64,000 nucleotides of DNA, taken from a virus. Its lineage: Duplodnaviria; Heunggongvirae; Uroviricota; Caudoviricetes. The stretch lies in the IMG/VR virus record IMGVR_UViG_3300034157_000063. One strand, given 5' to 3'. A program made the position numbers and the translations under genes. The number at the start of each line of letters is the position of its first letter. Positions within the stretch are counted from its first letter, which is position 1. The notes beneath the pieces are model-generated. The model saw nothing but the letters and a program-made list of their open reading frames with translations, was not told where the DNA came from and made no database searches. This document shows positions 3 to 63,577 of the stretch, in pieces.

Positions 3-410
3 AGAAATATTAAAATCCGTCACACCTCGGCGGGGCAACGTGATTCTCGCATGGTGTTGAAACATAGGCTTTCAATTGCTAAAATTAAATTTTCTAATTG
101 CACTTATGAATATGTGCCAGTCATAAAATTTACGTTACCTATGTCCAGCATCACGAATAGAACAGTGATTGTATCAGCCAGTAAAAAACATGATTTTATG
201 TTTTATCAACATAGTGGTAAAATGATTTACCTTGACCGCTCAGAACATGATGTGTTTTTTGAAAAGCACAATAAATCATTGGTCACTCATATTTATAACA
301 GTTTATCAAAATCTATTGGAATGGATGATGTAGCCTTGAAAGACTTTAAACAATTTGATGATGAAGAAAGAGAGCGATTTGTAATGGTTTCAAACATGTT
401 AAAAGTTTAA
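3..410 (+). CDS. hypothetical protein, 5'-partial, M-x-x-hydrophobic tail
   Basis: Frame open to window edge; ends VMVSNMLKV. Confidence 0.7.
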   Translation, partial: RNIKIRHTSAGQRDSRMVLKHRLSIAKIKFSNCTYEYVPVIKFTLPMSSITNRTVIVSASKKHDFMFYQHSGKMIYLDRSEHDVFFEKHNKSLVTHIYNSLSKSIGMDDVALKDFKQFDDEERERFVMVSNMLKV

Positions 411-501
411 ATAATAATTATTTTTATAGTCCATTTATGCTTATCTTTTTGTTGAAAAAACAATGGGTAAATGGTATAATCTTGTAAATTACGAGGATTT
501 G

Positions 502-2637
502 ATGATGCAGACGAATGAAGCACTTATTGTAAACTTTTTCAATGATTATAGAATCAATCGACATTATGCACAGATGCCTAATGTTCCTTTTATTTTTAAT
601 GCACTTGAAAATTTGGCATCTAACAAAGATGTTACAAAATCATTCATGTTTGGTCAAAACAAGCATCGTTCTCAATATCAATCAGACTCATCTTCTTTTT
701 CGCTAAGTAATATAGATGTGAATACTTTGAAGTCTTTGTCTGGTCTTGATTATGCCTTTATTCTTGAAGGTTCTGGTCAACCTTTCAAACAACAATTAGC
801 CCGCATCACAAGAGATGAACGTTTTGATGATGATTTTTTGGATAATGAACCTTGTCATGGTAACAGTTTTTTTCATTCTAATCCAAGAAATAAACAAGAT
901 GCTTCTCAGTATAGCAAAGAAGGTCTGGCGACCATTAAATTTGTGAGCAAATGTCGTAGTTTGTATCAACAAATGCATTCTGTTATTCAGTATATGATTG
1001 GTTATTATAGTTATAGCCTGTCTGTGGATTACTCAACATTGTTGAAAAAATGGGAGCAGGCTGTTCCGTCACTGCATATGAGTTGTGCCAAAGAAGTTAA
1101 AGAATTGAATAAAATTATTGAATCGACTTATGAATCCAATAAATTTTTTAAAGATCGTTATGAAACGTTTGTAGACTTTGTTGTTAAATCTAGTGCTTTT
1201 GTCGATATGTTCATGGACTTTACTGAAAATCGTCATAGCTCTGCCCCACGAGGTTTTGAAAATTCAACAGGACACAGTAACTTTTTTGGTCATCAGGGTA
1301 TGCCAGTTAATCGTCCAGTCGGCCCAGTCTTGAACGAGAAATTCAAAGAACTTTTTGCTCAGCAAGAGCGTAGGTTGACTGATTTTATTGAATCCAATAA
1401 AGACATTCTGGTATCGCGTGAAGCTCATGAATTTTTTAATCAAGACACCTTGATCGCAGACTATAAGAAAGTTTTGAAAATTTGTGAGATTTTGATTGAA
1501 AAAACTGACATTCATCTGAATTGTAAATCGTTGCAGGCGATTAGATTTTTAGACACCTATGCTTCACGTCATGAAGACATTATGAAAGCTACTGACTTTG
1601 ATACTGAATTTAGAGATCTTAATATTGTAGCAGCTATTAATAATATTAAAAATTCTAGTATTACAGCAGCCATCGTATTTGATGACAAATCAGTAGCTGT
1701 TAAGAAAAAAGGCTATGAAGGCTTCCAGTATAGTCCTAGTTCTTTTATGGGCACCGAATTAGTGCTGGATGGTTACATGGATGAAGTCAATCACATGTTG
1801 CGTAAAAATCCATCAATGAATAAATCAGTTAAGGTGTTAATGCGTAACTTGAAAACCAAACATATCAATAACCAGCCGCTTCTATTTAGCTCGCTTAAAG
1901 GTTTAAAAGTTGGTTTGAAAAGCTATTTTGATAATGAAAACATTTTGAAGGCTCATAGTTTTGACATGATTAATGAATTGAAGACTTCTCGCACCTTTGA
2001 AGAATTCGATGACAAAATTCACAAAGTGGTGCGTAAGCATAAAATTGAGCAATATGCCATGAGTATTGTTAGTAACAAGTATAAGAATCTATACAGTGAT
2101 AAAACACTCTCAATCATGGAAGAACTCTATGATATGGGCATTAGCACTCACATTCTTCAAGATATGATTGGTAAAAAGATGGCAAGCATTAAAAACACTC
2201 GCTCTTTGAATGCTGCATTGAAGTCGTTGTTGAACAGTATTAATGGATTTGAAATTTCAAATATTAAGATGAAAGCTGCAGCCAACAATGTGAAAGTGTT
2301 GTTTGAAACAGAAGACTACTTGGTTCTTGAAATTGATACGTTCAAGCAGTCAAAAGCAATGGGTAGTCCTTCTTGGTGTATCAGCCGTGAAGACTATCAC
2401 TTTACCACTTATACTGAGGGTGGTAATATTCAAATCTTTGCTTACGACTTTAGTCTTACTTCAAAAGACAATAAATCTATTGTGGGTATCACATTGACCA
2501 GACACATGAAGGTTCATGCCGCTCACAACAAGAACGATACTGAATTGCGGGATAAGGCAACAAAGGAAAAAGTGATTAAGATTGTAGCAGATGCCAAAGG
2601 TATTGTGCTCAAAGAACATAAGCCAAAATCTGCATAA
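502..2637 (+). CDS. large hypothetical protein, possible C-terminal PcfJ-like domain
   Basis: GAGG RBS before ATG 502; MGSPSWCISR...F..Y motif; Lys-rich tail. Confidence 0.6.
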   Translation: MMQTNEALIVNFFNDYRINRHYAQMPNVPFIFNALENLASNKDVTKSFMFGQNKHRSQYQSDSSSFSLSNIDVNTLKSLSGLDYAFILEGSGQPFKQQLARITRDERFDDDFLDNEPCHGNSFFHSNPRNKQDASQYSKEGLATIKFVSKCRSLYQQMHSVIQYMIGYYSYSLSVDYSTLLKKWEQAVPSLHMSCAKEVKELNKIIESTYESNKFFKDRYETFVDFVVKSSAFVDMFMDFTENRHSSAPRGFENSTGHSNFFGHQGMPVNRPVGPVLNEKFKELFAQQERRLTDFIESNKDILVSREAHEFFNQDTLIADYKKVLKICEILIEKTDIHLNCKSLQAIRFLDTYASRHEDIMKATDFDTEFRDLNIVAAINNIKNSSITAAIVFDDKSVAVKKKGYEGFQYSPSSFMGTELVLDGYMDEVNHMLRKNPSMNKSVKVLMRNLKTKHINNQPLLFSSLKGLKVGLKSYFDNENILKAHSFDMINELKTSRTFEEFDDKIHKVVRKHKIEQYAMSIVSNKYKNLYSDKTLSIMEELYDMGISTHILQDMIGKKMASIKNTRSLNAALKSLLNSINGFEISNIKMKAAANNVKVLFETEDYLVLEIDTFKQSKAMGSPSWCISREDYHFTTYTEGGNIQIFAYDFSLTSKDNKSIVGITLTRHMKVHAAHNKNDTELRDKATKEKVIKIVADAKGIVLKEHKPKSA

Positions 2638-2653
2638 TAACAGGAGTACATAA

Positions 2654-3256: not shown

Positions 3257-3922
3257 ATGAAGAAAAACAATTTTGATTTCCTTAAAAAGATAGTGGTTAA
3301 CTTTCTTAATCAATTGTCTTTTCAAAATGTGAAGTCTATGGACATTAAAATTAAAATCAACGCCACCTCACCAAAAGCAGATTCGTTGCATGTTTTTATT
3401 GATGGTGTTCATGCTGTTGATCTTGAAGTTGCCCTTGAAAAACATGATAAAGAAACAAACTACAAGATAGTCAAAAAAATTAGCCGTTTCAACATGCGAA
3501 TTAAACATGAATTTATTCAGAGCCATTCTTTTATTCATGATGGCATTACAAAAGAATACATATCCAGTATTTTTATTGAAGACATGAATTGGATCAATAT
3601 TGGTTTGCGGCTTGATTATAAAATTGTTTATTGCCTTCTCGCTAAACACAAGCATTGGCGTGATGATATTAAGCATGTTATCTATTGCTTTATGAATAAA
3701 GATAATAAACCATTAGGTGTCTATGGCGTTAATGGCAAAGAACAAGAACTATTAAAATTTTGCATGAATAAAGTCGATAAGATGGCAATTATGTATTTGT
3801 TTCATAAAAATTATGAAGATTACTATAATGATACGTTTCCACCTTTTACTGAGACGCTGGATATCAATGCTATTGATGATTTAGATAATAAATTGACGCT
3901 TGTTTCTATGATGCAGTTTTAA
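3257..3922 (+). CDS. hypothetical protein, tail family
   Basis: TGCTATAAT promoter at 3222; ends LTLVSMMQF. Confidence 0.75.
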   Translation: MKKNNFDFLKKIVVNFLNQLSFQNVKSMDIKIKINATSPKADSLHVFIDGVHAVDLEVALEKHDKETNYKIVKKISRFNMRIKHEFIQSHSFIHDGITKEYISSIFIEDMNWINIGLRLDYKIVYCLLAKHKHWRDDIKHVIYCFMNKDNKPLGVYGVNGKEQELLKFCMNKVDKMAIMYLFHKNYEDYYNDTFPPFTETLDINAIDDLDNKLTLVSMMQF

Positions 3923-5086: not shown

Positions 5087-6763
5087 TTATTTATTTTCAA
5101 CCGTCATCTTTGATAAACATGGATAGGTTTCAATACCTAAGATATTACAGCCTTTCTCAATGACATCCTTCACTGCCGCGATCAAACATAATTTCTTATA
5201 CTCTTCTTCATGTCCCAATATTTTTTCACTTTCGTAATATTTGTGGAATAAAGTACATAAGCTGACTAGTTGAGTGGTTAAATAATGACTTTGATACTCA
5301 GTACTCATTTCATTGATAATCTCTTGAGTTTTCAAAATATTAAAGAATAAAGCATTTTCCTGATTATTTAAAATCAGATCATCAGTGATGGTCAATTTAG
5401 GTTCATTCATATTGTATTTCTTAAACAAAATTGAATCAATCCGCACATAAGCATTTTGAAGATAAGGAGCTGAACCACCAGAAAAGTTTAAGACATGTTT
5501 CCAGTCAAACACATAATCTTGATGCTTGCTTAATTTTAAATCATGAAATTTAAGACCACCTACAATCGTTTTATTCAACAACTCAGTTTGTGTCTCACCT
5601 GAAAGCTTTGTAAAGTGTGGAGACTTTAATAATTCATTTTTACCTTCCATTAACAAATCATCCAAATACAATGATTTTCCTGTTTTTGTTTTGATAGGTT
5701 TGTTATCTTCACCTAAGATGGTACCGAAACCCAAATGGATAAGCTTATTTTTATCGGTTGCATAACCTACTTTTTTAGCAATCATGAAGATTGTTTCAAA
5801 ATGCAGTGACTGCCGTTTATCAACCACATACACTATTTTATCTGGGTTATGTTGTTCTACCCGCCATTTGATAGCCGCTAAATCATAGAGAGCATACAAA
5901 AAGGTGCCATTCGTTTTTTTGATGACCAGCTTGTTATTTTCAAGTTGAACATACACCGAACCATTCTCATCAACACTGGCAATTTGTTTATTGATTAAGT
6001 CCACAACGATTTCATGACAGAACTGAGCAAAGAAGCTTTCACCTTTGGTATCCGCAATGGTCAATTTGAGCTTAAATTCTTTAATTGTAGATTCTAGGTC
6101 AATCAAACTAATATCGACACATTTTTGCCATAATGCTAGCAATTCATCATCAAGTTTATTTTGAAGCTTGTACGCAACATTATCAGATTCAAGTGCAAAT
6201 GAATTATCATCACTTTCTTTGGATAGGTTATAGGCAGTATAGGCGAGCTTATAATACTCAGTGAGCTTTTGATTGTCCAAGTTGTTTGCTAAATCATTCT
6301 TCATAATGTAATTGAGTAGGAAACCAAACTGATTGCCCCAATCACCAACATGATTATATGAAATAACTTCATCACCCATGTTCTGATGGCTCCGAACAAC
6401 AAAGTCGCCAATAAACATAGACCGTATATGACCGATGTGCATTTTTTTTGCAACGTTAACACCACAGTAATCGACCACCACTGTTTCTTTTGGTTTTGTT
6501 TGCACTGTTTGTGCATTCATTAAATTCATTTTGAAAGACAAAAAAGCCTTACCCGTAATTTCAATGTTTTCGTAATGAGTTGTTTTCAATAAATAAGCAA
6601 TCAAGCTGGCTGTGTCAAAGTCGCCTTTTTTATTTAATTGAAAAAGAATAGATGTTTGATAATGAAAATTTTCAAAACTTGAATACGATACATCAACCGT
6701 TAACGTGATGTTTTTTGATGTCAGATAATTTTGGATATCCGATTTAATAATGGACTTGTACAT
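5087..6763 (-). CDS. argS: arginine--tRNA ligase
   Basis: DYCGVNVAKKMHIGHIRS (HIGH), NHVGDWGNQFG, GESF, YVVDKRQxLHF, PYLQNAYVRI. Confidence 0.95.
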   Translation of the reverse strand: MYKSIIKSDIQNYLTSKNITLTVDVSYSSFENFHYQTSILFQLNKKGDFDTASLIAYLLKTTHYENIEITGKAFLSFKMNLMNAQTVQTKPKETVVVDYCGVNVAKKMHIGHIRSMFIGDFVVRSHQNMGDEVISYNHVGDWGNQFGFLLNYIMKNDLANNLDNQKLTEYYKLAYTAYNLSKESDDNSFALESDNVAYKLQNKLDDELLALWQKCVDISLIDLESTIKEFKLKLTIADTKGESFFAQFCHEIVVDLINKQIASVDENGSVYVQLENNKLVIKKTNGTFLYALYDLAAIKWRVEQHNPDKIVYVVDKRQSLHFETIFMIAKKVGYATDKNKLIHLGFGTILGEDNKPIKTKTGKSLYLDDLLMEGKNELLKSPHFTKLSGETQTELLNKTIVGGLKFHDLKLSKHQDYVFDWKHVLNFSGGSAPYLQNAYVRIDSILFKKYNMNEPKLTITDDLILNNQENALFFNILKTQEIINEMSTEYQSHYLTTQLVSLCTLFHKYYESEKILGHEEEYKKLCLIAAVKDVIEKGCNILGIETYPCLSKMTVENK

Positions 6764-8133: not shown

Positions 8134-8895
8134 ATGGATTACGAGACTATTGGCGAAATAAAATACTTTTTATCTGATAAGGAAACTCTTATTCGGGATG
8201 GTTTTGATCAAAAAAATGAACTTAAACGTCTTGAAAAATATATCATGAGAAGCAAAAATAGTTTTATGATTGCGGATAGTCAATTAGACTTGTTAATTGC
8301 ATTAGGATTCGTTCGTGTAGATGGATATCAGCCTTCTGAAACATTAACGTCATTCATGGAAAACTTTCAATTGTTATCAAATGCTGATTTTAGTTATGTG
8401 AGAACTCGAAAGAATAAAACAGTTGAATTATTTTTTAAAAATTTTGAAATGCCATCTGATGGGCATGATTTCTATTATGTAAGCATGAAATCTTTTCAAG
8501 ATAATCCTTTAACATTAGGCAACGGAAAACAAAACTTTTTTTATTCCTATGATGAAATTTATAATGCCGAACCTAATTATCTATTCAAATATGTTGATGA
8601 TTTTATAGAAAAGACAAATATGTTACCTTATTATAATTCTTATGCTCGAATTACAAAAACGTATTACCCTAACAATCCAGATAAAGAATTTGAATTCTAC
8701 TTGTCTATGGTCGCTTTTAACAGTCAAAAAACCGCTACTATATTGGATTACACGTTATATGGGAAAACAATTTCATTCTATAATATTAAAAAATTACTTC
8801 CCGATTTAGAATACACTATGGATTCATTAAGTAAACGCAAAACAGTTATTGATGAAGGACATATTGAATTACTTAAAATTATTCGTTATTCATAG
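8134..8895 (+). CDS. hypothetical protein, variant tail
   Basis: AGGAGG RBS, TGCTATAAT; ends IELLKIIRYS. Confidence 0.75.
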   Translation: MDYETIGEIKYFLSDKETLIRDGFDQKNELKRLEKYIMRSKNSFMIADSQLDLLIALGFVRVDGYQPSETLTSFMENFQLLSNADFSYVRTRKNKTVELFFKNFEMPSDGHDFYYVSMKSFQDNPLTLGNGKQNFFYSYDEIYNAEPNYLFKYVDDFIEKTNMLPYYNSYARITKTYYPNNPDKEFEFYLSMVAFNSQKTATILDYTLYGKTISFYNIKKLLPDLEYTMDSLSKRKTVIDEGHIELLKIIRYS

Positions 8896-9895: not shown

Positions 9896-10672
9896 ATGTC
9901 GATGACAGAAGCTGAACGTAAAGACTATATCCAACAAGAAATTTGCTCAGTAGCCACTGCTGGTATTGATATTGAACCCGAAGATAACTATACGCAACAC
10001 AACATTGTCTATTGCTTGAAACATAAATATTTAACATCGAAAGAATACTGGCTCAGTCATACTGATGATATGGCTCATCGTGGTATTCGTATTCATAAAT
10101 CTAAAACCCAACCATGCCCACGTCGAAATTTCGATGATCTTTTTACTTCTGTGAATAAGTTTAATGACTCACAAGCTCGCTATATTGCAAAGACAGTGGC
10201 TTACTTGATTGAATGTATTACACCATCAGAACAAGACATTGCTGATACTATTCTGGCTCATTATGCAGGGCAGCATAAACAATATTGTTTTAATTATTAT
10301 ACATCAGTCTCGCATCTAGAATCTTTTTATGTCATTGACGACTATGTTAAGTTTCCAGATGAGGGCTTGTGTGAGCATATGAAAATTCACTTCAACTCTT
10401 ATCGTGATGACTTTCACATTCATCGAAACATTCATTTCTATGTGATTGGGACAGACTTAATTTGCTCAGCCAGTATGAAAGGCACTAATTATGTGGTGGT
10501 TGATCGTAATCAAGACCATAGGGTGTTGGCCTGTAAGATTCTTGAATCCATACTTGAACCTTTGCTTAAAGGATTGGATTATAATCATGAAGATATTACG
10601 CCAGCTAATGTTAAAGAGTTCTTCAGTAAAATTGTTGAATTTAAACAATTGACTGAAATGGTTGATATTTGA
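9896..10672 (+). CDS. hypothetical protein, tail family
   Basis: GAGG RBS; ends FKQLTEMVDI. Confidence 0.8.
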   Translation: MSMTEAERKDYIQQEICSVATAGIDIEPEDNYTQHNIVYCLKHKYLTSKEYWLSHTDDMAHRGIRIHKSKTQPCPRRNFDDLFTSVNKFNDSQARYIAKTVAYLIECITPSEQDIADTILAHYAGQHKQYCFNYYTSVSHLESFYVIDDYVKFPDEGLCEHMKIHFNSYRDDFHIHRNIHFYVIGTDLICSASMKGTNYVVVDRNQDHRVLACKILESILEPLLKGLDYNHEDITPANVKEFFSKIVEFKQLTEMVDI

Positions 10673-10716: not shown

Positions 10717-11562
10717 ATGCATTTAAATGAAAAATCAAAATTAGATGATGTTTTAAAGGTTCTCAAAAATGACCTCGGCGGGGATGATGTCGATGATGGT
10801 TATATCTATTCACAAGCTTTATTAAAAAAGCTAACTTACGCTAATGAGCCATTAGAAATCAGATTTATTGATATTACAGGACTTGGGTTTTATTCACTGA
10901 CAATGGCTGGTGCAAGTGTTGAGAATATGTTTAGTGGTTTGATGGCATTACATTGTAATTATAGTATTAATTTTGACTACTTTAATAAGGTAATGCGGGC
11001 TATCTCTGATGTGGCTTCTAAGGCTTACGTTATCAAGAAACCTTTTAAAGAAATCAATTTAACGGGATTGAATTGGCAAGACGCTTACATTCGTTATACC
11101 CGAACTGACAATCAATCTCATCGTCACTCTTTTAATATTAATGGTGCTCATACCATTTTTAACAATAATAAAGTTTCTTATGACGTTGAACCTAGCTTGA
11201 TGTACGAATCCAGTACGTTCAATGGTTGTATCGGTTATTTTGATGCTGGTAATCGAGACAATTCGTGCTCTGGTTTTGTTATGAGAATGCAGTGTTCTTG
11301 TCGATCTCTTACTGACCACTCTTTTGCCAACTATTCATTTTTTGTTTCATTAGATGAAAATAATCCATTTATTTTAATGGAAGATGGAAAGATTGTAACA
11401 GAAGAACGTTTTAAATTTTACGTTGAACAACACTTATATAAGTTTCTTTATAGAACTTTTATTTCGACGGGTGTTGGGACAGATACTATCAATGAATTGA
11501 AAGCATTCACCAAAACTGAAATGCAAGACATTGTTAAAATACATGAGATGGTAAAAATGTAG
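10717..11562 (+). CDS. hypothetical protein, tail family
   Basis: Ends IVKIHEMVKM (TAG). Confidence 0.8.
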   Translation: MHLNEKSKLDDVLKVLKNDLGGDDVDDGYIYSQALLKKLTYANEPLEIRFIDITGLGFYSLTMAGASVENMFSGLMALHCNYSINFDYFNKVMRAISDVASKAYVIKKPFKEINLTGLNWQDAYIRYTRTDNQSHRHSFNINGAHTIFNNNKVSYDVEPSLMYESSTFNGCIGYFDAGNRDNSCSGFVMRMQCSCRSLTDHSFANYSFFVSLDENNPFILMEDGKIVTEERFKFYVEQHLYKFLYRTFISTGVGTDTINELKAFTKTEMQDIVKIHEMVKM

Positions 11563-11605: not shown

Positions 11606-11947
11606 TTATTGGTTGATTTCATTTCGTTCCAAGAGTGTCCAAAAAGTTGTCTCACCGACTTTAACTTCACGGACAAGCCAATCTTCAGAACCAATAGCAT
11701 TCTTTGTCCAATATTCTTTAACATTGACTTTATCAGTCAGTGATAGACGCAGTGTAGTATAAGGTTCTTTCATGATGCTATTGGTATACCAAGGCGTTTT
11801 GTATTGAGCCGAAGTGATCTCTTGAAACGATATAAAGTCCTTAATGGCTATAATAGACGTAAAGATCAATAGGGCTACACCGATAAGAGTAAGTGTATTT
11901 TTAAATTCAGTTTTAAAACTCATAGCAACACTTTCATTCGCAGTCAT
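11606..11947 (-). CDS. small membrane-anchored protein
   Basis: GGAG RBS; one TM segment. Confidence 0.7.
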   Translation of the reverse strand: MTANESVAMSFKTEFKNTLTLIGVALLIFTSIIAIKDFISFQEITSAQYKTPWYTNSIMKEPYTTLRLSLTDKVNVKEYWTKNAIGSEDWLVREVKVGETTFWTLLERNEINQ

Positions 11948-12105
11948 AAAAAAATCTCCATGTCATTTAATTAACATTATTATATCAAAAAATCAGTCTA
12001 TAATCAATCATTACATGGCTTTAAATGGTCTTTTTTATTTCTATTTTTCATTGACTAAATGTTGAAAATTTGCTATCATTTATTAATATTTATAGGAGTT
12101 ATACA

Positions 12106-13842: not shown

Positions 13843-14745
13843 ATGACTCATTTAAAAGAATTGTACCCAACCATTGACCCCAAGTATCAGATTGTTTATA
13901 AAAATGAACGTTCATTATTGGGTAAATCAGAAGATCTGCACTATTTGATTAATAAAGCTGATAATGCCGTTGTTGTGATGGACAGCAATAAACATCCTAA
14001 CCATATGGGGATTTTTGTTTTCAGAGATAATCTCTTGGTTAACAGTTTTAATGTGAAGCACCTTTTTATTAGTCAGCATACTAGCTATACCCCAGAAGGC
14101 ATTGAACAAGAGCGTTGGAAAATGTATGTTGAATTTCTCGAACCTTATTATTCAAATGATTGTGCTATCCAGTTAGGCACTGTTATTAATGATCAAGTGA
14201 ATCATTTTATGAAAAGCGTAGCATATTATAAAGTGCATATTAATTTTGTCCAAGAACATGGTCAACAAGTTTTAAATAATATTGAAATTGAAGATAAAGT
14301 CTATAATTTTAAGTATAAAGCCATTGTTCGTGATGGACTTGTTTACTTTACAATGATGTTTAACGACGACCCAGACCAAGAAGAATTTGTTAAAGGTAAG
14401 TTTAATCTGCAGGACTATACGCATTATGAGTCAGCCGGTGGTTATGTGATTGATTCTTTTGCAGGTGACTGGTTTATTGCTGAGACACACTATGATCCTT
14501 ATTTGAAGCTTTATCAATACAAAACTGTTCGTTATGAGGATTCAAAAGTACTAAAAGACAGCGACCTACTGAAAGACTATCAGGAGTATGATGTTAACTT
14601 TATTTTCAATTTTATCTATGATAGTGTGATTATTCATCATCCAAAACACAGTTTTATTGAAAAGCTAGTTGAATTGTCTATTTTGAGTGATGGTGAAAAA
14701 TTGACCCATGAACACATGAATATTTATGCTATGGCAACCATTTAG
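13843..14745 (+). CDS. hypothetical protein, tail family
   Basis: TGCTATAAT at 13803; ends MNIYAMATI. Confidence 0.8.
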   Translation: MTHLKELYPTIDPKYQIVYKNERSLLGKSEDLHYLINKADNAVVVMDSNKHPNHMGIFVFRDNLLVNSFNVKHLFISQHTSYTPEGIEQERWKMYVEFLEPYYSNDCAIQLGTVINDQVNHFMKSVAYYKVHINFVQEHGQQVLNNIEIEDKVYNFKYKAIVRDGLVYFTMMFNDDPDQEEFVKGKFNLQDYTHYESAGGYVIDSFAGDWFIAETHYDPYLKLYQYKTVRYEDSKVLKDSDLLKDYQEYDVNFIFNFIYDSVIIHHPKHSFIEKLVELSILSDGEKLTHEHMNIYAMATI

Positions 14746-16232: not shown

Positions 16233-17105
16233 ATGCAACTACACGATTACTACAAAAAATATGGACAATCTTTCCTGACTGCGGATGAATTCCTTACGCA
16301 CTGGGGCGAATCTGTTCAATTTAAATTAATGGACAATCGTGTCTGTGCCAGTCCACTTTACATTCGCAAGCTTGTCACTGACAAATTAAACTCTTTGTTT
16401 AAAATTGATTCAGTATCTGATGAAATTCATCACAAGATGATGACTGCTTATTTCGAAGCTTTGATTGAATTCAATATTATTCCTTTGGAGACTGAGTTTA
16501 AAGATAACTTACACTTTGATTCAGATAAAGTTCGTATTTTCCAGAAAGGATTCCTTAATTTCCGTAGACCAAAAACTTTAGCCTTTCCACATGAGTTTGA
16601 GACTCAACACTTGGTTGATCGGGTTATTTTTAATAATGCCATTTTCATTGATGATAAAAGTCAATACAACTTTTACACCATTATGTCTAATTACGGTAAT
16701 GGTAATGTTGATAATGAGTTCATGAAATTCTCTTATTACATTATTGATGGTGTTTTTCATTTTCAAGCCCCTAAATCAGCAGATAAAATGCAAGTGATTG
16801 TTTCTATGCCTGTTGATGAAATAAATGACCATTATGACCACTTCAAGCAGTTAATAAAGAAAAAATTGTTTACCACCTTTTATGAAAACATCAGTAAAAT
16901 TGTTTTCAGACGAGTGTTAGACTTTGACACCTTTAATTCGAAACATTTAGCGGTTTTAATTATGTTGGGTGGTCAACCTATTCGAGAGTTGATGTCGTTT
17001 ATGGAAGAAAATGAGTACTTGAATGATATATTCTCGTTAAACGATGATGAGATCTATGAACTTTACAAAGTTTCTTTAACCACTTTTGAGATGATAAAAA
17101 TATGA
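16233..17105 (+). CDS. hypothetical protein, tail family
   Basis: TGCTATAAT at 16200; ends LTTFEMIKI. Confidence 0.8.
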   Translation: MQLHDYYKKYGQSFLTADEFLTHWGESVQFKLMDNRVCASPLYIRKLVTDKLNSLFKIDSVSDEIHHKMMTAYFEALIEFNIIPLETEFKDNLHFDSDKVRIFQKGFLNFRRPKTLAFPHEFETQHLVDRVIFNNAIFIDDKSQYNFYTIMSNYGNGNVDNEFMKFSYYIIDGVFHFQAPKSADKMQVIVSMPVDEINDHYDHFKQLIKKKLFTTFYENISKIVFRRVLDFDTFNSKHLAVLIMLGGQPIRELMSFMEENEYLNDIFSLNDDEIYELYKVSLTTFEMIKI

Positions 17106-17848
17106 CTACAATCACGTCGAGTGCCAAACATAAACTTGAACATGATATTTTGGCGGAATTTCCTGAATTTGCTAAGAAGATTGGCTTGAATGGTTATTCT
17201 TATATGAAGTTGAATGAAGATAAGGATATGTTTCATATGAATGACAAAGATAAAACTTATTTGTTCACACCTTCGTATAAACTTGATGAAGGCTTTGGTG
17301 ATTTTGATGCCGGTCATCCTGTTGAATTTAAAATGGTAGCCACTCTGTTTAAAGACGACACATTGAAAATTAATAATATAGATTTCGAATTCCATGATAA
17401 TGATGACCATCTATTAAAACAATTAGTTCATTTGCATGACCTCACCAATTATTTAGCTAATTTTAAAGAATTGTCATCTTTTATTTTGGCTCGTTCTGAT
17501 ATTGTTGAGCACTTGGCACCCACATTGAAATTTAATTTTGAGGGTGTCTTGATTGAGCTTGGGGGCGTTTTTAAATATTCTGAAAGTTATCTGCATGGAC
17601 CTTCATCCGCAAGAAGCAGTAATCGTTATTATACCAATTCATTAAGTCTTTATAATGAGGATTATAATAGATTCTATAAGATTACGAACCCACAAGAAGC
17701 CCTGATATTTGCTAAAATGTCTTTTTTAAGTATTCATGATGAAAATATTCAAGAGTTATTTGACACAGAAGACTGGGAAGATTTGTATAATAAATTTAAA
17801 GACAATCCAGAAGCATTTTTAAGTTTATATGACATGACAAAAATTTAA
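17102..17848 (+). CDS. hypothetical protein, tail family
   Basis: ATGA overlap with upstream gene; ends LSLYDMTKI. Confidence 0.8.
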   Translation: MTTITSSAKHKLEHDILAEFPEFAKKIGLNGYSYMKLNEDKDMFHMNDKDKTYLFTPSYKLDEGFGDFDAGHPVEFKMVATLFKDDTLKINNIDFEFHDNDDHLLKQLVHLHDLTNYLANFKELSSFILARSDIVEHLAPTLKFNFEGVLIELGGVFKYSESYLHGPSSARSSNRYYTNSLSLYNEDYNRFYKITNPQEALIFAKMSFLSIHDENIQELFDTEDWEDLYNKFKDNPEAFLSLYDMTKI

Positions 17849-48512: not shown

Positions 48513-49304
48513 ATGGCAACAGCAGAAATCGACATAGATTCAGAGATTAAGAATTACTTTCTCGATTATTTAGTGAGCGAACTGAATATAGACGAAATCC
48601 ATTATGAACTTATTAAACCAAAACGACGTTGTGTTTTTAGAATACGAATCAAGGGTGCTATTGAAAATTTAGTGGTTGAATATCAAGAAGACTTTATTGG
48701 TGAATATTCTGTTTACTTTAAAACAACCGCCAGCAGTGAATTTTTTGAAAGCTTTCTTAATCCTATTTTGAAAACCAAAACTATAGATTATGCCGAACGC
48801 TTTAATTTAATGTTTAATAAACTCGAACAGACTGGCACAAAATTTAAAGTCTTTAAAAAGATAACAATGGTCAGCAATTCAATTCTTTCCACTAGGATTC
48901 AATTGGATAGACTTTCTGGTGTTGAATATAATGTCGTGAGTTCTCATCGTAATATCTCAATGGCTGTTAATGAAAACCTCTATACTCATCAAAAAAAGAT
49001 TCATAATTTTAAGACAATGATATATTTCACATTCAAAAAAGGTATTTTGTCAGCGGATTGTTTAGTGTTCAACCAGTCTATGAGTAATGATAAGGTTGAC
49101 GCTGTTGAATTATGGATATCGAATAATGAAGCTGTATTTACAAAAAATTTAAGATATTTTCAAAAGCAACTTGAAGATTTTGCACTTCATGAATTATTTT
49201 ATCCAATCCATATACATTATGGCATTCCATTTAATCAAATTATTGCAATGACAGAAGAAGAATTAAAACCTTATGTTGATGTTGTTAGTATGCTAAGAAT
49301 ATGA
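48513..49304 (+). CDS. hypothetical protein, tail family
   Basis: Ends VDVVSMLRI. Confidence 0.8.
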   Translation: MATAEIDIDSEIKNYFLDYLVSELNIDEIHYELIKPKRRCVFRIRIKGAIENLVVEYQEDFIGEYSVYFKTTASSEFFESFLNPILKTKTIDYAERFNLMFNKLEQTGTKFKVFKKITMVSNSILSTRIQLDRLSGVEYNVVSSHRNISMAVNENLYTHQKKIHNFKTMIYFTFKKGILSADCLVFNQSMSNDKVDAVELWISNNEAVFTKNLRYFQKQLEDFALHELFYPIHIHYGIPFNQIIAMTEEELKPYVDVVSMLRI

Positions 49305-49311: not shown

Positions 49312-50319
49312 ATGATTAATGTATTGAAGAACCTGTTTGGCAGAAACACTTTGTCAGTCAATAACCTTATTAAAGTCAAAAAGGTTAATGATGTTCAGTT
49401 TACTGCAGAAGCTAAAAATGGACTGTTTGCTGAAATAGATATTAAAGATGGTTATATGTTTGTGACCATTAAAGATAGAGGTAGCAGTAGCACCATGAAT
49501 TACTGCACGCAAAAAATAGATGAGACTGTTGATAATCATCATTATGTCCTCAATCAGTTAGCTGATAATATCTTTTTTCAATTTGATAGAAAAACATTTC
49601 CCTATCTCAGAAATAGATATGCCGCTATTTTTACAAACCATCCAAACGTATTGAATATGTTCTTAGGTGGTGTTGAAGAAGATACAGATAAATCACCATC
49701 CATTCAGTATTTTAATGACATCTACTATCCAGAAGTGGCTATTGTAAAAAAATCAGTCATCAAGAATATCAACAAAGTCACCTTTTGTTTATTGTCATCT
49801 ACTAAAAAAGCTGTAAATAGAGCACATTTCTATATCGTTAATGATCAGCTATTTGAAGTGGGGAGATTTAGTGACTTTAGTTCCATACCCTGTTTAAAAG
49901 ATAAAATGAATGAATATGGCAACATGATTGACACTCGAAAGGTTCGTATTCTAAAACACAACTATAATGCCTGCCTACTGATTAAAGACGGTTTGAAGTA
50001 TCGACTGGTTGTAGAAGATTTTAATGAACTTGATAATGATAATTTGAAAGACAGAAAAATGACCGATGATACCACCATTAAATTTTTTGAATTCACTTAT
50101 GAGAAAGGTGTCATTCTACAGAAATCAGTGGTGTTTAATGATGAAGCCCTTCAAAAATATCAGCAAGAGTTTTTGAGTGTGTATAGTAAACGTATAAATT
50201 ATTGTCGATCTTATTATCCATCGCTGCAGACTTATGCAACACTTGAAAAAATGGGGATGGATGACACACTTCCACTGGATGAGAATACTCTTCTTCTTCT
50301 TTCTATGTATGAAATATAA
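49312..50319 (+). CDS. hypothetical protein, tail family
   Basis: Ends LLLLSMYEI. Confidence 0.8.
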   Translation: MINVLKNLFGRNTLSVNNLIKVKKVNDVQFTAEAKNGLFAEIDIKDGYMFVTIKDRGSSSTMNYCTQKIDETVDNHHYVLNQLADNIFFQFDRKTFPYLRNRYAAIFTNHPNVLNMFLGGVEEDTDKSPSIQYFNDIYYPEVAIVKKSVIKNINKVTFCLLSSTKKAVNRAHFYIVNDQLFEVGRFSDFSSIPCLKDKMNEYGNMIDTRKVRILKHNYNACLLIKDGLKYRLVVEDFNELDNDNLKDRKMTDDTTIKFFEFTYEKGVILQKSVVFNDEALQKYQQEFLSVYSKRINYCRSYYPSLQTYATLEKMGMDDTLPLDENTLLLLSMYEI

Positions 50320-50622: not shown

Positions 50623-51052
50623 TGTTCTTTCTTTCTAAGTAGAAATCCAAATATTTCTTTGGTCTTTCTTTAAAGGCTCGTTTGTTACCAATTTTAAATG
50701 AGCTATCAAATGCTGAATAGGCTTCATCATATTGTTTTAATTCATAACACACCATTCCCAGATCCATAAAGCCACCTGTATCTATTTTAGATGTTTGACC
50801 CGCCATTGATATTTTTATCCATTCTTTTGCTTTGTTATATTCCTGAGTATCAAAATACACCTGATATAAGCAGCCTGCTATCCAATAAGTCAGGAATGAC
50901 CATTGTTTATCATCTGGCAACTTTTCCCATCCTTCTTGATAATGATCGAGAGCAACGGTGTAAAGGTTTGATTCATGAAATACATTACCTTCTTCAACTA
51001 TTTCTATAATCTCTTTTTCTAACTCTGTATTGATTTCACTCAGTTCTTTCAT
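50609..51052 (-). CDS. TPR-repeat protein
   Basis: TPR-like helices (LGMVCYELKQYDEAYSAF). Confidence 0.7.
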   Translation of the reverse strand: MKELSEINTELEKEIIEIVEEGNVFHESNLYTVALDHYQEGWEKLPDDKQWSFLTYWIAGCLYQVYFDTQEYNKAKEWIKISMAGQTSKIDTGGFMDLGMVCYELKQYDEAYSAFDSSFKIGNKRAFKERPKKYLDFYLERKNTNTN

Positions 51053-51840
51053 ATTTTTACCATCCTCAATAGTGTTATGTCATCTTGGTTAAATGCTGTT
51101 CTGTCATTACCAAGATGTTTTTTTATCATCGGTAAATAAATAGCTAAGAACTTATCATCCACTATTTTTTGAAACTCTTCAATATCTTTCATCATAATTA
51201 ATTCGTCAGATTCTTTAAATTTGACCGCAATCATTAATTTATCATCTAGTTTCACAACGTTAACAATTACTTTTAGATTGCTGGTCATTGGATAGTTTAT
51301 GATATACCACTCTAATAAACTACAGTCATCTAATATAAAATACTGTCTTTTTATATAGGTTGGTCCATGTTTACTCCATGCACCTTTACCACAGATACCT
51401 ACAATGTCATACACCGTTTTAAAAAAAACTTCCGGTGTCACTTCGTTTCTGTTTTTTAATAGTTTCTTTATTTTCTTTTCATGAACTTTATTTTTATCTT
51501 TATTATAAATCCCATACTTCTCACCTGTTTTATTAATGATACTAATGATAGAAAACAAATCAGATTCTTTCATTTCATGAGATTTAAAATGATTGAATGT
51601 TTTAAGAAGTTCGGTTTGATCCCGACCTAAAAAATATATTTGTCTATTATTGTTGTATACTCTTAAATGCATGAAAGGATGAGCTAGACTGGCCGGAGAT
51701 TTTATGTCATAAAATTCGTATTCAACAATCCCCTCACTGCCTTTTTCGACAATAGGTTCATTTGAGAAATTAGGCACATTCTTATCAAGGAACTGTAATA
51801 AGTTCTCTATATTGAAATCTGTTTCAAAAATATTGTCCAT
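51049..51840 (-). CDS. hypothetical protein, tail family
   Basis: AGGTG RBS; ends ITLLRMVKI. Confidence 0.8.
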   Translation of the reverse strand: MDNIFETDFNIENLLQFLDKNVPNFSNEPIVEKGSEGIVEYEFYDIKSPASLAHPFMHLRVYNNNRQIYFLGRDQTELLKTFNHFKSHEMKESDLFSIISIINKTGEKYGIYNKDKNKVHEKKIKKLLKNRNEVTPEVFFKTVYDIVGICGKGAWSKHGPTYIKRQYFILDDCSLLEWYIINYPMTSNLKVIVNVVKLDDKLMIAVKFKESDELIMMKDIEEFQKIVDDKFLAIYLPMIKKHLGNDRTAFNQDDITLLRMVKI

Positions 51841-53245: not shown

Positions 53246-54694
53246 TTATTTATATTTATTAATTAATTCATCTAATTCTTGTTCAGTAAAACTACCTAAC
53301 TTATTTATAACCGATCTGAAACGATAACGTGTCATGTCTGGCCCCAGTAAGCTCATTGCATCAATTACTGAAATAGAATTTAGTGACCCAGTAATAATCA
53401 CAAACACCAATGGCATAATATCTTTCAATTTTAGATTCATTTTAGCGGCTGACGCTTTTAATGTATCCAGTATTTGAACTTCATTCCATTTCTTCAATGC
53501 TTCAATATCCCATAACATGACTTGAATGGCTTCTTTCACTTCTGCCTCTGTTAATTTCTTGTGCGTTAGTAATGAAGTATCATATTTCAAATCACCACTA
53601 TACATGAAGGCCACCAGATCATTAACCTGACTGAAGTTTTCTACACGACTTTGTATCATCGGTATCAATTTATCAAACTTATCTGTGCTGAATGCCCACT
53701 GTGATAGCTTATCTTTAAAGGTGTCTGGCGTGAGTTCTCTTAACCATAGACCATTGAGCCAAGAAAGCTTATTAACGTCGAAAACAGGGCCACCCAGTGA
53801 TACACGCTGTATATCAAAGTTATCTACCATGTCTTGCAAGGTAAACTTTTCTCTTTCATCCGGCATCGACCACCCCATACGACCCAAATAGTTCAATAAA
53901 GCTTCTGGTAGGTAACCCATGTCCTTATAGAATGTAATAGATGTAGGATTTTTACGTTTTGACAATTTACTTCTGTCCATATTACGCAACAGAGGCATAT
54001 GACAATGCTCAGGCATTTCCCAGCCAAAGTACTGATACAGTAAAACAATCTTAGGTGCAGACGGCAACCACTCTTCACCTTTCAGAACATGAGTAATGTC
54101 CATCAAGTGGTCATCCACAACGTTAGCTAAGAAATAAGTTGGTAAACCATCTTGTTTCATGAGCACTTGCATATCGACTTGCTTCCAATCATAGGTGACA
54201 GCACCACGCAACATATCATTTACAGTGCAGATACCTTCTGTTGGAACTTTCATACGGATAACATGAGAAACACCCGCATTTAGCTTACTAGCTACATCTT
54301 CTGAGGTTAATGTAAGGCAATGACCATCATACTTAGGCGATAGTCCAGCCGCTATTTGGTCTTCACGCATTTTATCAAGGCGATGGCTATCACAGAAGCA
54401 TGGGAAGGCATGTCCTTTGTCTACAAGGATTTGAGCATGTTCTTGATAAATGGCTTTACGGTCACTTTGGCGGCAAGGTTCTTCATCCCACGACAGTCCC
54501 AACCATTTCAGTGAATTTAAAATAGACTCTTCGGATTCTTTGGTAGAACGCACTTGATCAGTGTCTTCAATACGAAGAATGAACTCACCACCATGCTTCT
54601 TAGCAAAGCAATAGTTAAACAAGGCAATATAGGCGGTACCCACATGTGGATCGCCCGTGGGGGATGGTGCTACGCGAGTTCTTACTTTTTTCAT
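53246..54694 (-). CDS. gltX: glutamate--tRNA ligase (Pseudomonas-like)
   Basis: [47 protein letters not shown]. Confidence 0.96.
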
Positions 54695-56338: not shown

Positions 56339-56626
56339 TTGTTTTTTTTAATTTTATCAAGAAGTACGTAAAAGACCATCTTTCGATGGTCTTTTTAGAG
56401 GTTTAAGGATACAAAAATATGTTAATTTAAAGACTAACTTAACACAATCAAATCATACCGTTCATCTAATCTTAAGTAAACTTCATAAAATCCTATTCTT
56501 TTGTAGGAGATTCGCTATAGTTTTTAAAAATCGCACAAAAATCCGTGTTAGGATAAGTTTACATTATTTTTGCTTTTATTTTTAAATTATGTTATTATTA
56601 ACGATAATTTAATGGGAGCAGTGTTT

Positions 56627-57214
56627 ATGATTGAAATTGAAGGCTATAAAGAAACCCCAATGTATACGATTGAACAGGTGCGTAACGTTATTGAAAACGT
56701 TAATCGAACGCTAAAACTTGAAGCGGTTAAAGTATTGTTTAATGAAAACACAAACACTTTGAATTTCGTTGTCAATACTAAAGAGGGTTCAAAAAACTTT
56801 ATTGAAGCTAGATTCTCGTTTGATCTTACTACTAAACAACCTAAGATTATTATCAATTATAAAGACTTGGAAAAAACTTGGTTTCATTCTATTTTTGATG
56901 AAAAATTTAATACCGCCCAAGAACGTTCTGCCGTCTTTTATCTCAGAAAAAGACTTGCTTTCGTGACTCGTGTCAGCACCCTTTTAGAATTTATTGAAAA
57001 TGACCATTGTGTCATCAGCTTTTTGATGACTTACAAGGAAATGACAAAGAAAGTGTACAAAGTTAGTGACCTAATTGACAGTAATCAAGTGTTGTTTGAA
57101 CTCTTCTGTTTTAAAGTCTTTGCTGATGAAGTGATCAGCACGGCTGAAAGCGTTCAAGATTTGATTGAAAATTTTGATAAACACGTTGCTTTAAATGAGA
57201 TGAAAACTATTTAA
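56627..57214 (+). CDS. hypothetical protein, tail family
   Basis: GGAG RBS; ends VALNEMKTI. Confidence 0.75.
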   Translation: MIEIEGYKETPMYTIEQVRNVIENVNRTLKLEAVKVLFNENTNTLNFVVNTKEGSKNFIEARFSFDLTTKQPKIIINYKDLEKTWFHSIFDEKFNTAQERSAVFYLRKRLAFVTRVSTLLEFIENDHCVISFLMTYKEMTKKVYKVSDLIDSNQVLFELFCFKVFADEVISTAESVQDLIENFDKHVALNEMKTI

Positions 57215-58141: not shown

Positions 58142-58969
58142 ATGAATAAGACTGTTATGAGATTTCATGATGATATACTTGGCGTTATTAATTATAGCAC
58201 ATCCACTACTTTATTTAACCTTGATGGTGACTGTTTTAAAAAATTGCTCACTGAATTCCGCAAAGTAGATCAAATTACAGCGTTTACAGAACAAACTATT
58301 TTTGTTTTGTCGGAAGTGTTGATGATCGTTAAATCAGATATGATGATTTTACACAAAAAAGATTTTGATATTATTCTGTCAGTCACGCTTGGGGATAGCA
58401 ATTCGCTTGCCTTGCAACTTCGGTATGTTGATAACCTTTTACCTTTTAGAAATAAAAATAAATCTTTTTTGTGGAAAAATGAACTCAGTGTCATTAATCA
58501 GATGACTAAATATGTTGCAGATACAGTTGTAGCGGATGACTGTTTTTGCAAAACAAAGACTGGTTTTTTAACTGTTCTTAAAAAAATTGATTCATTTTTA
58601 GAACTTGATAATACTTTGTATGACGACATTGTACGAACAGGTATTTATCCACAGTTAGCTTATATTCCAAATCATACCTTTAAAATTGAGTTTGCGGAAG
58701 ATTTATTAACTTTCGAAAGTTTCTTTAAAGGAGATTCTTATGATTTTTTCAATTTGCCATTTTTTAAAATACATTTTGATAAGGGTAAAATTAGCATTAG
58801 AATAGCGGGTCAAGAAATTGTTTTAACAGAACATGAATTCTTACACACTCCTAATCACGAAATTATAAATATCATTATAGAGTTATTGAAAATAAAAAAC
58901 TTACCTATTCAATCTATTTCAAACTTGAAAGACTATCTTTTAATTCAAGACATGAGTAAAATAAAATAA
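58142..58969 (+). CDS. hypothetical protein, variant tail
   Basis: AGGAG RBS; ends LLIQDMSKIK. Confidence 0.75.
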   Translation: MNKTVMRFHDDILGVINYSTSTTLFNLDGDCFKKLLTEFRKVDQITAFTEQTIFVLSEVLMIVKSDMMILHKKDFDIILSVTLGDSNSLALQLRYVDNLLPFRNKNKSFLWKNELSVINQMTKYVADTVVADDCFCKTKTGFLTVLKKIDSFLELDNTLYDDIVRTGIYPQLAYIPNHTFKIEFAEDLLTFESFFKGDSYDFFNLPFFKIHFDKGKISIRIAGQEIVLTEHEFLHTPNHEIINIIIELLKIKNLPIQSISNLKDYLLIQDMSKIK

Positions 58970-61660: not shown

Positions 61661-62929
61661 ATGATTTTAGACACAGGTTTATTGAAGCTGTATGCATCAA
61701 ATGGGTTCAACGTTTTGCTCACTGGCCGTCATGGTGTTGGTAAAACTGCCATTATTAAAGAAGTCTTTTCTGATACCTTCGGTGAAGATAACTGGGCCTA
61801 CTTTTCTGCGGCTACAATGGACGCATGGGTTGACTTCGTAGGCGTTCCAAAAGCTGTTAAACGTGAAAAGGATGGTATGGAAGTAATTGAGCTTATCCGT
61901 CCAGCTCGCTTTGCTGATGATGATGTTCAGGCTATCTTCTTCGATGAATTTAACCGAGCACCCGCAAAAGTTCGAAATGCCGTAATGGAACTTATTCAGT
62001 TCAAATCTATTAACGGACGTAAGTTCAATAACCTCAAAGTTATTTGGGCCGCTATTAACCCCTTCTCAGAAGATGCTGGTGGTTATGATGTTGAACAGAT
62101 TGACCCAGCACAGCTTGACCGTTTTCAAGTTCAAATTGAAGTGCCTTACAAAGTTGACCGCCCTTACATGAAAGCTAAGCATGGTGCCATCGCTACGCCT
62201 TTCGTTGAGTGGTGGAATGCACTTGATAAGGAAATGCAATACAAGGTGTCACCGCGTCGTTTGGAAGATGCTTTGTGTGTTTACAACGTTAAGGGTAACC
62301 TTGAGCATGTGCTTCCAAAAGAAAGTAACTTGGCATCATTGCGTGATCGCATTATGAAAGTCTCGTTGGATGATGAATGGAAAGATGTTGTGACCATGAC
62401 CAACAATGAAAAACTTAACTTTTTGCAAAACGTTAGCAATGTGGTGAAATTCAAAGATTTCATTATTAAGGATTTTGCAAACTACGCTAAATTTGTTCCC
62501 GAAGACTTTTTGATTTCTAAACTTGAAATTAAAGATTTGGAATGGCTTGATGCTGCAGTTGCTAATCCATCAAAAATTCCAGATTCAATTGTGTCAACAA
62601 TGGAAGCAACTCACAAAAAAGACTTTTCTGATATTTTGAAAGCTTTGAAGAATATTCTTCCATCTAACATTTCAATGAATTTGAATGGTAAAAACGTAGT
62701 GATTACTGGTAAATTTGTTAGAAATTATAAAAATGGCAATACTAGATCTGATATTGAAAGCTTGTTACAGCGTATTGGTGCAAAAGTTCAGAAAACAGTC
62801 ACTGGAACCACTAATTATCTGATTGTAGAGGATAAGAATACATCTACTACTAAAATGCAAGATGCACAAAAACAAGGTGTCACTATTCTTTCAGAAGATG
62901 AATTCCATGCTGTTTATGGTAACTTCTAA
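61661..62929 (+). CDS. MoxR/dynein-related AAA+ ATPase with C-terminal BRCT domain
   Basis: GRHGVGKT Walker A, IFFDEFNRA Walker B, AAINP, LDRF; GKNVVITG..R..GAKVQKTVTGTTNYLI..K..A..GVTILSEDEF. Confidence 0.85.
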   Translation: MILDTGLLKLYASNGFNVLLTGRHGVGKTAIIKEVFSDTFGEDNWAYFSAATMDAWVDFVGVPKAVKREKDGMEVIELIRPARFADDDVQAIFFDEFNRAPAKVRNAVMELIQFKSINGRKFNNLKVIWAAINPFSEDAGGYDVEQIDPAQLDRFQVQIEVPYKVDRPYMKAKHGAIATPFVEWWNALDKEMQYKVSPRRLEDALCVYNVKGNLEHVLPKESNLASLRDRIMKVSLDDEWKDVVTMTNNEKLNFLQNVSNVVKFKDFIIKDFANYAKFVPEDFLISKLEIKDLEWLDAAVANPSKIPDSIVSTMEATHKKDFSDILKALKNILPSNISMNLNGKNVVITGKFVRNYKNGNTRSDIESLLQRIGAKVQKTVTGTTNYLIVEDKNTSTTKMQDAQKQGVTILSEDEFHAVYGNF

Positions 62930-63001
62930 TTAGTATGTAGTCATTAAAAGGGGCTTCGGCCTCTTTTATTATTTAAATGTTAAAAAGTAGAGAGTAAAAA
63001 T

Positions 63002-63577
63002 ATGATAAATGGACAATACAGTGATGATGTAGGAAATCAGCAAAAAATTATCGAGTATTTTTTTAGTTCACAAAATATTCAGTTAATAGAATCCCATGAA
63101 CAAGAAACTATTGGTGATACTATACTTATTGTCAATCCTAATGAGAAAAAAAATGATGTTTGCAAACATCAAATTATCAAATTTAATTTTTCAAGAAAAA
63201 CAGATGACATTTTATCAGCAACTGCAGTTTATGCTTATGATAATGGCACCAAAGATGGAATGATATTTAATAATGAATTTTTTATTGAGAAAATGAAATT
63301 AGGCCAAAAATGCATTTCTGTACTGGATAAGATTCCGGTCAAACACTATTATCCAGCAATGGGTTTTAATATAGAAATGAATACAGTTGAAAATAAAATC
63401 GTGCTAAAAGAATGTTATCAACGTATTAACATAATTGGAACGCATGGAACAAGTTATCATCTTTTAGAGAAACTTGTTAATGATTTTATCTGTACTAATT
63501 TAAAATCATGGGAAATCAATACTCATGACATTGAACTTACCGATCTGATTGATATGTTTTTGATGGTTGATATATGA
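63002..63577 (+). CDS. hypothetical protein, tail family
   Basis: Ends IDMFLMVDI. Confidence 0.75.
   Translation: MINGQYSDDVGNQQKIIEYFFSSQNIQLIESHEQETIGDTILIVNPNEKKNDVCKHQIIKFNFSRKTDDILSATAVYAYDNGTKDGMIFNNEFFIEKMKLGQKCISVLDKIPVKHYYPAMGFNIEMNTVENKIVLKECYQRINIIGTHGTSYHLLEKLVNDFICTNLKSWEINTHDIELTDLIDMFLMVDI

Follow-up and report, generated by a model that had tools for sequence, protein, structure and literature searches.

Large libraries of paralogous proteins in which a variable body is joined to a short constant helical module are best known from the F-box and SOCS-box adaptors, which include the poxvirus ankyrin-PRANC proteins with their C-terminal F-box-like domain. Docking through a C-terminal peptide is familiar from SspB on ClpX and from the HslU tail on HslV. 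C-terminal signals also mark the Dot/Icm substrates of Legionella, the examples being the C-terminal 20 residues of RalF, the E-block and the LvgA motif FxxxLxxxK (PMC9302130, PMC10025392), while among giant replicons the pMEGA megaplasmids of Enterobacteriaceae contain an expanded protein class, about 20% of the pMEGA4 proteome being alpha-solenoids (bioRxiv 10.1101/2025.09.30.679422). Here, we analyze a stretch of 64,000 nucleotides assigned to the Caudoviricetes (IMG/VR record IMGVR_UViG_3300034157_000063), termed the window, which belongs to a giant AT-rich element and in which many proteins, termed carriers, end in a common motif with Met at the fourth-last position (-4). No described family matches the carriers and we located no description of either motif or element in the literature; the motif and the superfamily that the carriers probably form appear to be new.

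The window contains 76 complete, non-overlapping open reading frames (ORFs) of at least 60 aa, fewer than the approximately 85 assumed in a first-pass annotation. The enrichment over background anticipated there is evident, as Met occupies position -4 in 18 of the 76 ORFs vs. 1.9 expected and control replicons show no such excess. At every other position between -1 and -15, Met occurs in 0–3 ORFs. All 18 tails listed as strict in the first-pass annotation were recovered where it had placed them and have Met at -4, but 17 rather than 18 conform to the strict pattern [LIVMF]xxMxx[LIVMFY]-stop, since TFEMIKI, ending at 17105, has Thr at -7. These 17 of 76 ORFs compare with 0.22 expected (binomial p ~3e-27), and the frequency of the same pattern at internal positions of the window proteins would give 0.19, i.e., background. 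A compositional artefact was rejected as the cause of the motif because the other terminal positions and the internal matches are at background level. Overlap with start codons or a DNA repeat was likewise rejected, as the Met lies in frame three codons before the stop and stops of all three kinds are used. Acidic residues precede the motif as had been claimed, the mean net charge of residues -25 to -5 being -1.9 in carriers vs. -0.1 (p=0.004). Of four variant tails proposed earlier, those ending at 8895, 39664 and 58969 are genuine because homologues have the strict motif (LMRMNQY, LSQMIDI or LKKMIDI, and IQDMKKI, respectively), while 19767 lacks a homologue for comparison. A further carrier had been overlooked; it starts at 63619, leaves the window and ends with LDLLAMVMI in the overlapping contig L001. 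Three carriers reside on the minus strand (38876 and 51049, strict; 39664, variant). The carriers and variants in the window are as follows.

3..410 (+): carrier cut by the window start, 267 aa in an orthologue; tail VMVSNMLKV
3257..3922 (+): carrier, 221 aa; tail LTLVSMMQF, LKTLEMASY in a distant orthologue (33%)
8134..8895 (+): variant carrier, 253 aa; tail LLKIIRYS, strict ITLMRMNQY in a distant orthologue (28%)
9896..10672 (+): carrier, 258 aa; tail KQLTEMVDI, Ile replacing Met in a distant orthologue
10717..11562 (+): carrier, 281 aa; tail VKIHEMVKM
13843..14745 (+): carrier, 300 aa; tail MNIYAMATI
16233..17105 (+): carrier, 290 aa; tail LTTFEMIKI, Thr at -7
17102..17848 (+): carrier, 248 aa; tail LSLYDMTKI
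19012..19767 (+): possible variant carrier, 251 aa; tail LKLANMVLFNQ with two extra residues, no homologue
31539..32405 (+): carrier, 288 aa; tail KIIFDMAGY, tandem paralogue of 32466..33338
32466..33338 (+): carrier, 290 aa; tail KDIFDMMGY
33340..34005 (+): carrier, 221 aa; tail AQLTLMKIY, tandem paralogue of 34024..34698
34024..34698 (+): carrier, 224 aa; tail AQLTLMKIY
38876..39649 (-): carrier, 257 aa; tail LTLKKMIDI, PilT/PilB Walker-B-like segment of ~30 aa at residues 141–169
39664..40428 (-): variant carrier, 254 aa; tail MTLHKIIKF, paralogue of 38876 with the same PilT-like segment
43694..44338 (+): carrier, 214 aa; tail LEIIKMVDF
48513..49304 (+): carrier, 263 aa; tail VDVVSMLRI, AlphaFold model with two helix/beta-meander modules and helices 206–236, 240–245 and 248–262
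49312..50319 (+): carrier, 335 aa; tail LLLLSMYEI
51049..51840 (-): carrier, 263 aa; tail ITLLRMVKI
56612..57214 (+): carrier, 200 aa; tail VALNEMKTI
58142..58969 (+): variant carrier, 275 aa; tail LLIQDMSKIK with one extra residue, IQDMKKI or IKTMESI in orthologues
63002..63577 (+): carrier, 191 aa; tail IDMFLMVDI, AlphaFold model with two helix/beta-meander modules and helices 155–169 and 179–189
63619..64000 (+): additional carrier running past the window end, 186 aa in L001; tail LDLLAMVMI, 25% identical paralogue of 63002

The motif recurs in a distant relative, a contig of 437 kb (IMGVR_UViG_3300031133_000383, termed G001) whose AAA ATPase is 66% identical to that of the window. Met is found at -4 in 102 of its 498 ORFs vs. 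11 expected (p=5e-65), and the carriers are spread along the whole contig at 4–15 per 40 kb. About a fifth of the element proteome carries the tail, which extrapolates to approximately 400 carriers per whole element if the density in G001 holds. No enrichment was detected in 400 kb of the Vibrio megaplasmid NZ_CP062152.1 (Met at -4 in 5 of 371 ORFs), in two huge phages (1/38 and 0/44) or in other jumbo-phage loci (12/612), and a general trait of giant AT-rich replicons was rejected on the basis of the Vibrio and jumbo-phage controls. G001 contains 17 occurrences of a stringent DNA form of the motif vs. 0–3 in four whole control genomes. When a profile was trained on G001 and its Met column omitted, the window carriers filled the top 15 ranks (p=5e-10); therefore, the whole signature and not Met alone is common to both elements. 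The motif is a real, element-specific feature of an undescribed giant element, the mechanism of which we infer below. Part of the large size of the element is explained by roughly one gene in five falling into a single class that homology searches had missed and that can now be recognized by a tail of 13 residues.

Derived from 85 independent representatives, the consensus reads acidic..[DEN]-x-hydrophobic-x-[LVI]-hydrophobic-[EK]-M-hydrophobic-x-[IY]-COOH, with Asp, Glu or Asn at -11, a hydrophobic residue at -9 in 79%, Leu, Val or Ile at -7 (88% hydrophobic), a hydrophobic residue at -6, Glu or Lys at -5, Met at -4, a hydrophobic residue at -3 and Ile or Tyr at -1. Asp and Glu are enriched at -11 and -15 of the carriers. 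The last 12 residues are nearly devoid of Gly and Pro, the last seven are hydrophobic on most helix faces, and the tail helix is placed confidently in AlphaFold monomer models of carriers 48513 and 63002 (pLDDT 82–87). The register is tight: among 315 ORFs, the Met of [LIV]xxM is located at -4 in 81, at -3 in nine and at -5 in seven cases, Leu and Ile take its place at -4 in only 9 and 19 ORFs, and the chain ends three residues past Met in about 85% of cases. When orthologue groups were defined by whole-protein BLAST, Met was present at -4 in every member of 19 out of 21 groups, five of these being singletons, and the tail is kept in all 11 window/relative orthologue pairs at 20–51% identity, some being one residue out of register or having Ile for Met. 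The carriers diverge faster than other genes (median identity 29% vs. 43% between window and relative, p=0.003) and are under purifying selection (dN/dS 0.04–0.40). In the paralogues 38876 and 39664, the last 50 residues are the best conserved part. Transmembrane-like stretches were found in 7 of 95 carriers vs. 33 of 220 other proteins. A search of 1.84 billion proteins with the tail profile yielded two matches, the motif being short and such a search having too little power, and a search of PDB sequences yielded none. A shared upstream DNA motif of the carrier genes was considered and dismissed as unconvincing (best k-mer p=3e-5 uncorrected, 12 of 92 genes).

With regard to their bodies, the carriers constitute a diverse group. 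After removal of the tails, 115 carriers fell into 87 sequence groups. A full-length Pfam match was obtained for none of the 111 carriers scanned, in which only one PilT-like segment of 30 aa and one sub-threshold match were detected and matches to F-box, SOCS-box, PRANC or ankyrin families were absent at E<=0.001. The only strong PHROG match, phrog_7208, concerns a 157-aa ORF whose Met is probably due to chance, and beyond it no full-length PHROG match of a carrier body was found. No recognizable enzyme is present among the carriers, in agreement with the earlier claim that the known enzymes lack the tail. The claim of mostly unrelated bodies holds at the sequence level, as three tandem pairs are the only mutual matches between bodies in the window, yet a common architecture seems to underlie them all. 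The AlphaFold models of 48513 (pLDDT 88) and 63002 (pLDDT 92) both run, in this order, from a helix through a beta-meander, a second helix and a second beta-meander to a long helix and the terminal helix, although profile comparison of the two families revealed no similarity. Furthermore, the hydrophobic periodicity of the carriers changes from helix to strand at the N-terminus and from strand to helix at the C-terminus and is flat in other ORFs; the ranges were set on G001, and the independent test in the window gave p=0.007 for the N-terminal and p=0.013 for the C-terminal part. Since two models dissimilar at profile level share the order of their elements and the periodicity repeats that order across carriers, the carriers probably represent one hyper-diverged superfamily with a single layout. 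Short carriers of 99 and 116 aa in G001 look like a single module plus tail, and the longest forms reach 408 aa. Fold searches of both models against PDB, BFVD and Atlas returned nothing significant, which does not make the folds new. The best matches had Z 6.1 (rmsd 3.4, 95 aligned) and Z 6.2 (rmsd 4.4, 95 aligned) and barely covered the C-terminal helices, none reaching Z>=8; the known folds compared with the models were RWD, KA1, cystatin-like and TriTu immunity proteins, the best Atlas TM score being 0.41 to TriTu. An ESM Atlas feature search gave no usable match. The proposal of the first-pass annotation, that diverse modules form a library ending in one constant helix, is supported insofar as the tail is specific to the element family, kept in orthologues and located on genes under purifying selection; however, its carriers look like one diverged superfamily and not like unrelated tagged proteins. 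The shared layout comes close to the single full-length homologous family that had been set against this proposal, but a partner recognizing the tail would still be required.

Because Met identity and stop position are fixed across dozens of groups, a constant reader of Met and the free C-terminus probably exists. A Met at fixed distance from the C-terminus implies, we infer, a common partner, and a single reader is to be expected for a motif kept this strictly in hundreds of proteins. Packing against the body alone is an unlikely cause of the conservation, as Met would be expected to exchange with Leu or Ile as the body drifts. If there were no common partner, the tail could be the last conserved structural piece of an old superfamily that closes its own helical C-terminal domain or serves self-association. 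The apparently uniform architecture, the hydrophobicity of the last seven residues on most faces and the confident helix in the monomer models agree with such a relic, which nevertheless leaves unexplained why Met hardly ever changes to Leu or Ile and why the stop is fixed while other positions have lost their identity; we regard it as improbable.

We tentatively favor the reading that the carriers are variable binding modules that dock via their constant tail on one hub in an F-box-like manner, since a constant docking end is joined to a body that is modular, evolves fast and has no enzymatic character. The variable part would be built from one or more small helix/beta-meander modules, followed by a helical C-terminal unit of which the last ~13 residues would act as constant docking helix. 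A pocket of a single partner would receive three parts of the tail, namely Met(-4), the aliphatic side chain at -7 and the last residue, Ile or Tyr, together with its free carboxylate. This partner would most likely be a machine of the cytoplasm, for example an AAA+ unfoldase/protease, or some other effector, with its gene on the element or in the host. Each carrier would bring a different client, i.e., a host, phage or rival-element protein, to this partner according to F-box/SOCS-box logic, client binding by the bodies being proposed by analogy. The carriers share with F-box, SOCS-box and PRANC proteins the large paralogue library, the variable body and the short constant helical module, which is also C-terminal here. 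They differ from them in being bacterial, in their alpha/beta bodies, in a motif tied to the free C-terminus and in that a cullin-like hub was not found. As in SspB and HslU, a short peptide with a hydrophobic end would dock on an AAA+ ATPase or protease; unlike the carriers, however, these are single genes without libraries of hundreds and have other sequence patterns without Met at -4. It is conceivable, with less assurance still, that the element possesses a bacterial counterpart of the F-box system in which ~400 genes (extrapolated) encode one adaptor superfamily that serves a single machine and captures and neutralizes host, phage or rival-element proteins. Should the reader be a protease or unfoldase, this would be the first bacterial adaptor library at F-box scale.

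Several observations weigh against adaptors on a common hub. A ClpX/ClpA/HslU-type AAA_2 gene that could provide the hub is absent from the 437 kb of G001 examined. Docking motifs of the F-box type do not usually depend on a free C-terminus, in contrast to export signals and degrons. Direct similarity between carrier bodies is barely above reversed controls (26 vs. 11 matches of at least 8 bits), no known binding or adaptor domain was found in the bodies (best Z ~6), and two models, compared by the order of their elements, plus a statistical trend provide support for the shared architecture, not proof. A gene set at 61661–62929 of the window and at 11732–13042 and from 18512 onwards in L001 comprises an AAA ATPase fused to a BRCT domain and, in its vicinity, genes of the DUF2201 (vWA/metallopeptidase) type as well as another ATPase, which is probably MoxR-like; identity in relatives is 66–90%. 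The fused ATPase is a hub candidate by neighborhood alone and is also present in jumbo phages that lack the motif.

The link to the free C-terminus and the hydrophobic end are features of known C-degrons as well, and the tail might accordingly shorten the life of the carriers through FtsH, Lon or Clp. Known degrons are largely unstructured and reside on unrelated functional proteins, whereas the carrier tail is a predicted folded helix limited to one structural class. Since the tail is confidently predicted as helical and absent from recognizable enzymes, this explanation is weakened and appears very improbable; the lack of enzymes distinguishes the carriers from typical cargo or degron sets in general.

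Export offers another explanation, in which a type IVB (Dot/Icm-like) conjugation machine of the element would recognize the tail as a translocation signal via its coupling complex and deliver hundreds of carriers into a recipient, competitor or predator cell. Dot/Icm substrates number ~300 and have C-terminal hydrophobic and acidic (E-block) signals (PMC9302130, PMC10025392), and the carriers resemble them in being orphan proteins, dispersed and hundreds in number, whose extreme C-terminus is hydrophobic and preceded by acidic residues; an acidic patch (in the carriers, Asp/Glu at -11 and -15) and hydrophobic residues near the C-terminus (-7, -4, -3 and -1) are features of Dot/Icm substrates. 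Dot/Icm systems are present on AT-rich giant plasmids whose cargo is similar, i.e., pMEGA (bioRxiv 10.1101/2025.09.30.679422) and Vibrio NZ_CP062152.1, and G001 encodes a degenerate PilT/DotB-like protein (135508–136287, minus strand), which has a broken Walker A motif and is not a carrier. On the other hand, element contigs are not among the best 120 of 704 IcmB homologues, neither a Dot/Icm system nor an intact secretion ATPase was found in the 437 kb of G001, and the Dot/Icm-bearing Vibrio plasmid lacks the motif (5/371 ORFs). Reviewed type IV signals lack a strict consensus and those of Legionella are degenerate, unlike the near-invariant Met on a predicted helix, and the carriers, uniform in size class and layout, have no enzymatic or eukaryote-like domains. 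A better match for a classical type IV signal is provided by a second, Lys-rich tail class, often with a hydrophobic end (KKLKVVI, KKSIKLV, KPKFKLI), in 44 motif-less ORFs of G001 and, e.g., at 463–2637, 6934–7998 and 20222–21289 of the window. It never coincides with the Met(-4) motif (0 of 95 carriers). Lys-rich tails of this kind resemble type IV positive tails and the ClpX C-motif of MuA. Taken together, we consider export of the carriers unlikely, yet worth retaining. It is compatible with the adaptor reading. Were the reader a coupling protein, the motif would be a type IV export signal of uncommon sharpness whose substrates could be listed at once, and the novelty would lessen, type IV export being already known.

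Two observations touch on these points. Carriers 38876 and 39664 and their orthologues, located at 974–2530 of contig L010, match the PilT/PilB Walker-B region over ~30 residues (E=5e-6), the rest of the body being unmatched, and the segment is possibly a mimic or bait of pilus/secretion ATPases. A toxin/immunity pairing of carriers with Lys-tail neighbors was rejected, as adjacency was observed 12 times vs. 16 expected.

The window proteins are recorded on a contig of 1,917,244 bp and relatives on contigs of 1,851,360, 1,843,594 and 1,859,102 bp. This is a family of AT-rich elements of 1.84–1.92 Mb (32.6% GC in the window) that mixes jumbo-phage-like with megaplasmid-like genes and occurs in many metagenomes, while GTDB scans with two conserved genes retrieved no relative. 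The similarities with pMEGA, likened by description only, comprise the megabase size, AT-richness, mostly hypothetical genes, many tRNAs and translation genes as well as efflux and chemotaxis genes. The expanded class of pMEGA differs in being alpha-solenoid, and the term "C-terminal" does not occur in the pMEGA main text (bioRxiv 10.1101/2025.09.30.679422).

Were the element a giant phage, it would be far larger than known phages, and the tail could load the carriers into the virion for injection with the DNA, comparable to cargo peptides of encapsulins and microcompartments. Jumbo phages provide the best match for several genes (AAA ATPase, 42–49%; the ORF at 41858 in Atu_ph07) and IMG/VR classes G001 as viral. 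However, neither a terminase (Terminase_6N) match in the 437 kb of G001 nor a structural (virion) family among its large ORFs was found, and its cargo of efflux pump parts, a chemoreceptor, MscS, TilS, NAPRTase and several DEDDh nucleases, together with the many tRNA synthetases, is much like that of pMEGA megaplasmids. In addition, the jumbo phages sharing the genes mentioned lack the motif and some 400 different proteins would constitute a very large head cargo, so that virion loading is quite improbable.

The element has its own tRNA synthetases and seven tRNAs, and the following synthetases are encoded in the window.

5087..6763 (-): ArgRS
23835..24590 (+): 251-aa minimal class II core (GlyRS-alpha-like)
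37475..38836 (+): CysRS
53246..54694 (-): GluRS

The GluRS is 60% identical to the Pseudomonas and 59% identical to the Acinetobacter enzyme, which makes a gammaproteobacterial host likely. G001 additionally encodes Tyr-, Ser- and further synthetases and, by eye, GatA/GatB-like and DnaK genes. A tRNA with a CTA anticodon, reminiscent of amber suppressors, is located at 46718–46793 (+) in the window and at 375947–376020 in G001, the two sequences being different. TAG still acts as a stop, as TAG-terminated carriers show the motif in register.

Other genes deserve mention. A conserved pair without Pfam match is present at 41843–43641 (+) of the window. Its first gene (146–151 aa, ending with PRI[VA]AG) is 75% identical in G001 and has homologues in the jumbo phages Atu_ph07 and Phosso, and its second gene (443 aa) is 50% identical in G001. 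A haem-oxygenase-like/PqqC domain fused to a DUF3419/methyltransferase domain is encoded at 27452–28996 (+) and is 57% identical in G001. A PBECR5 nuclease-domain protein (44385–45878 (+) in the window) and a 534-aa protein not encoded in the window (13911–15515 in L010) account for nearly all similarity to the initial 400 kb of the Vibrio megaplasmid, at ~23% identity. Carriers 48513 and 49312 are flanked by two small, related Cys-rich (zinc-ribbon-like) proteins (48222–48449 and 50377–50622). In G001, tandem repeats of ~225 bp and ~950 bp with ~75% identity occur at 222600–225450 within and after a 427-aa ORF, and three copies of a TnpB-like insertion element are found elsewhere on the contig.

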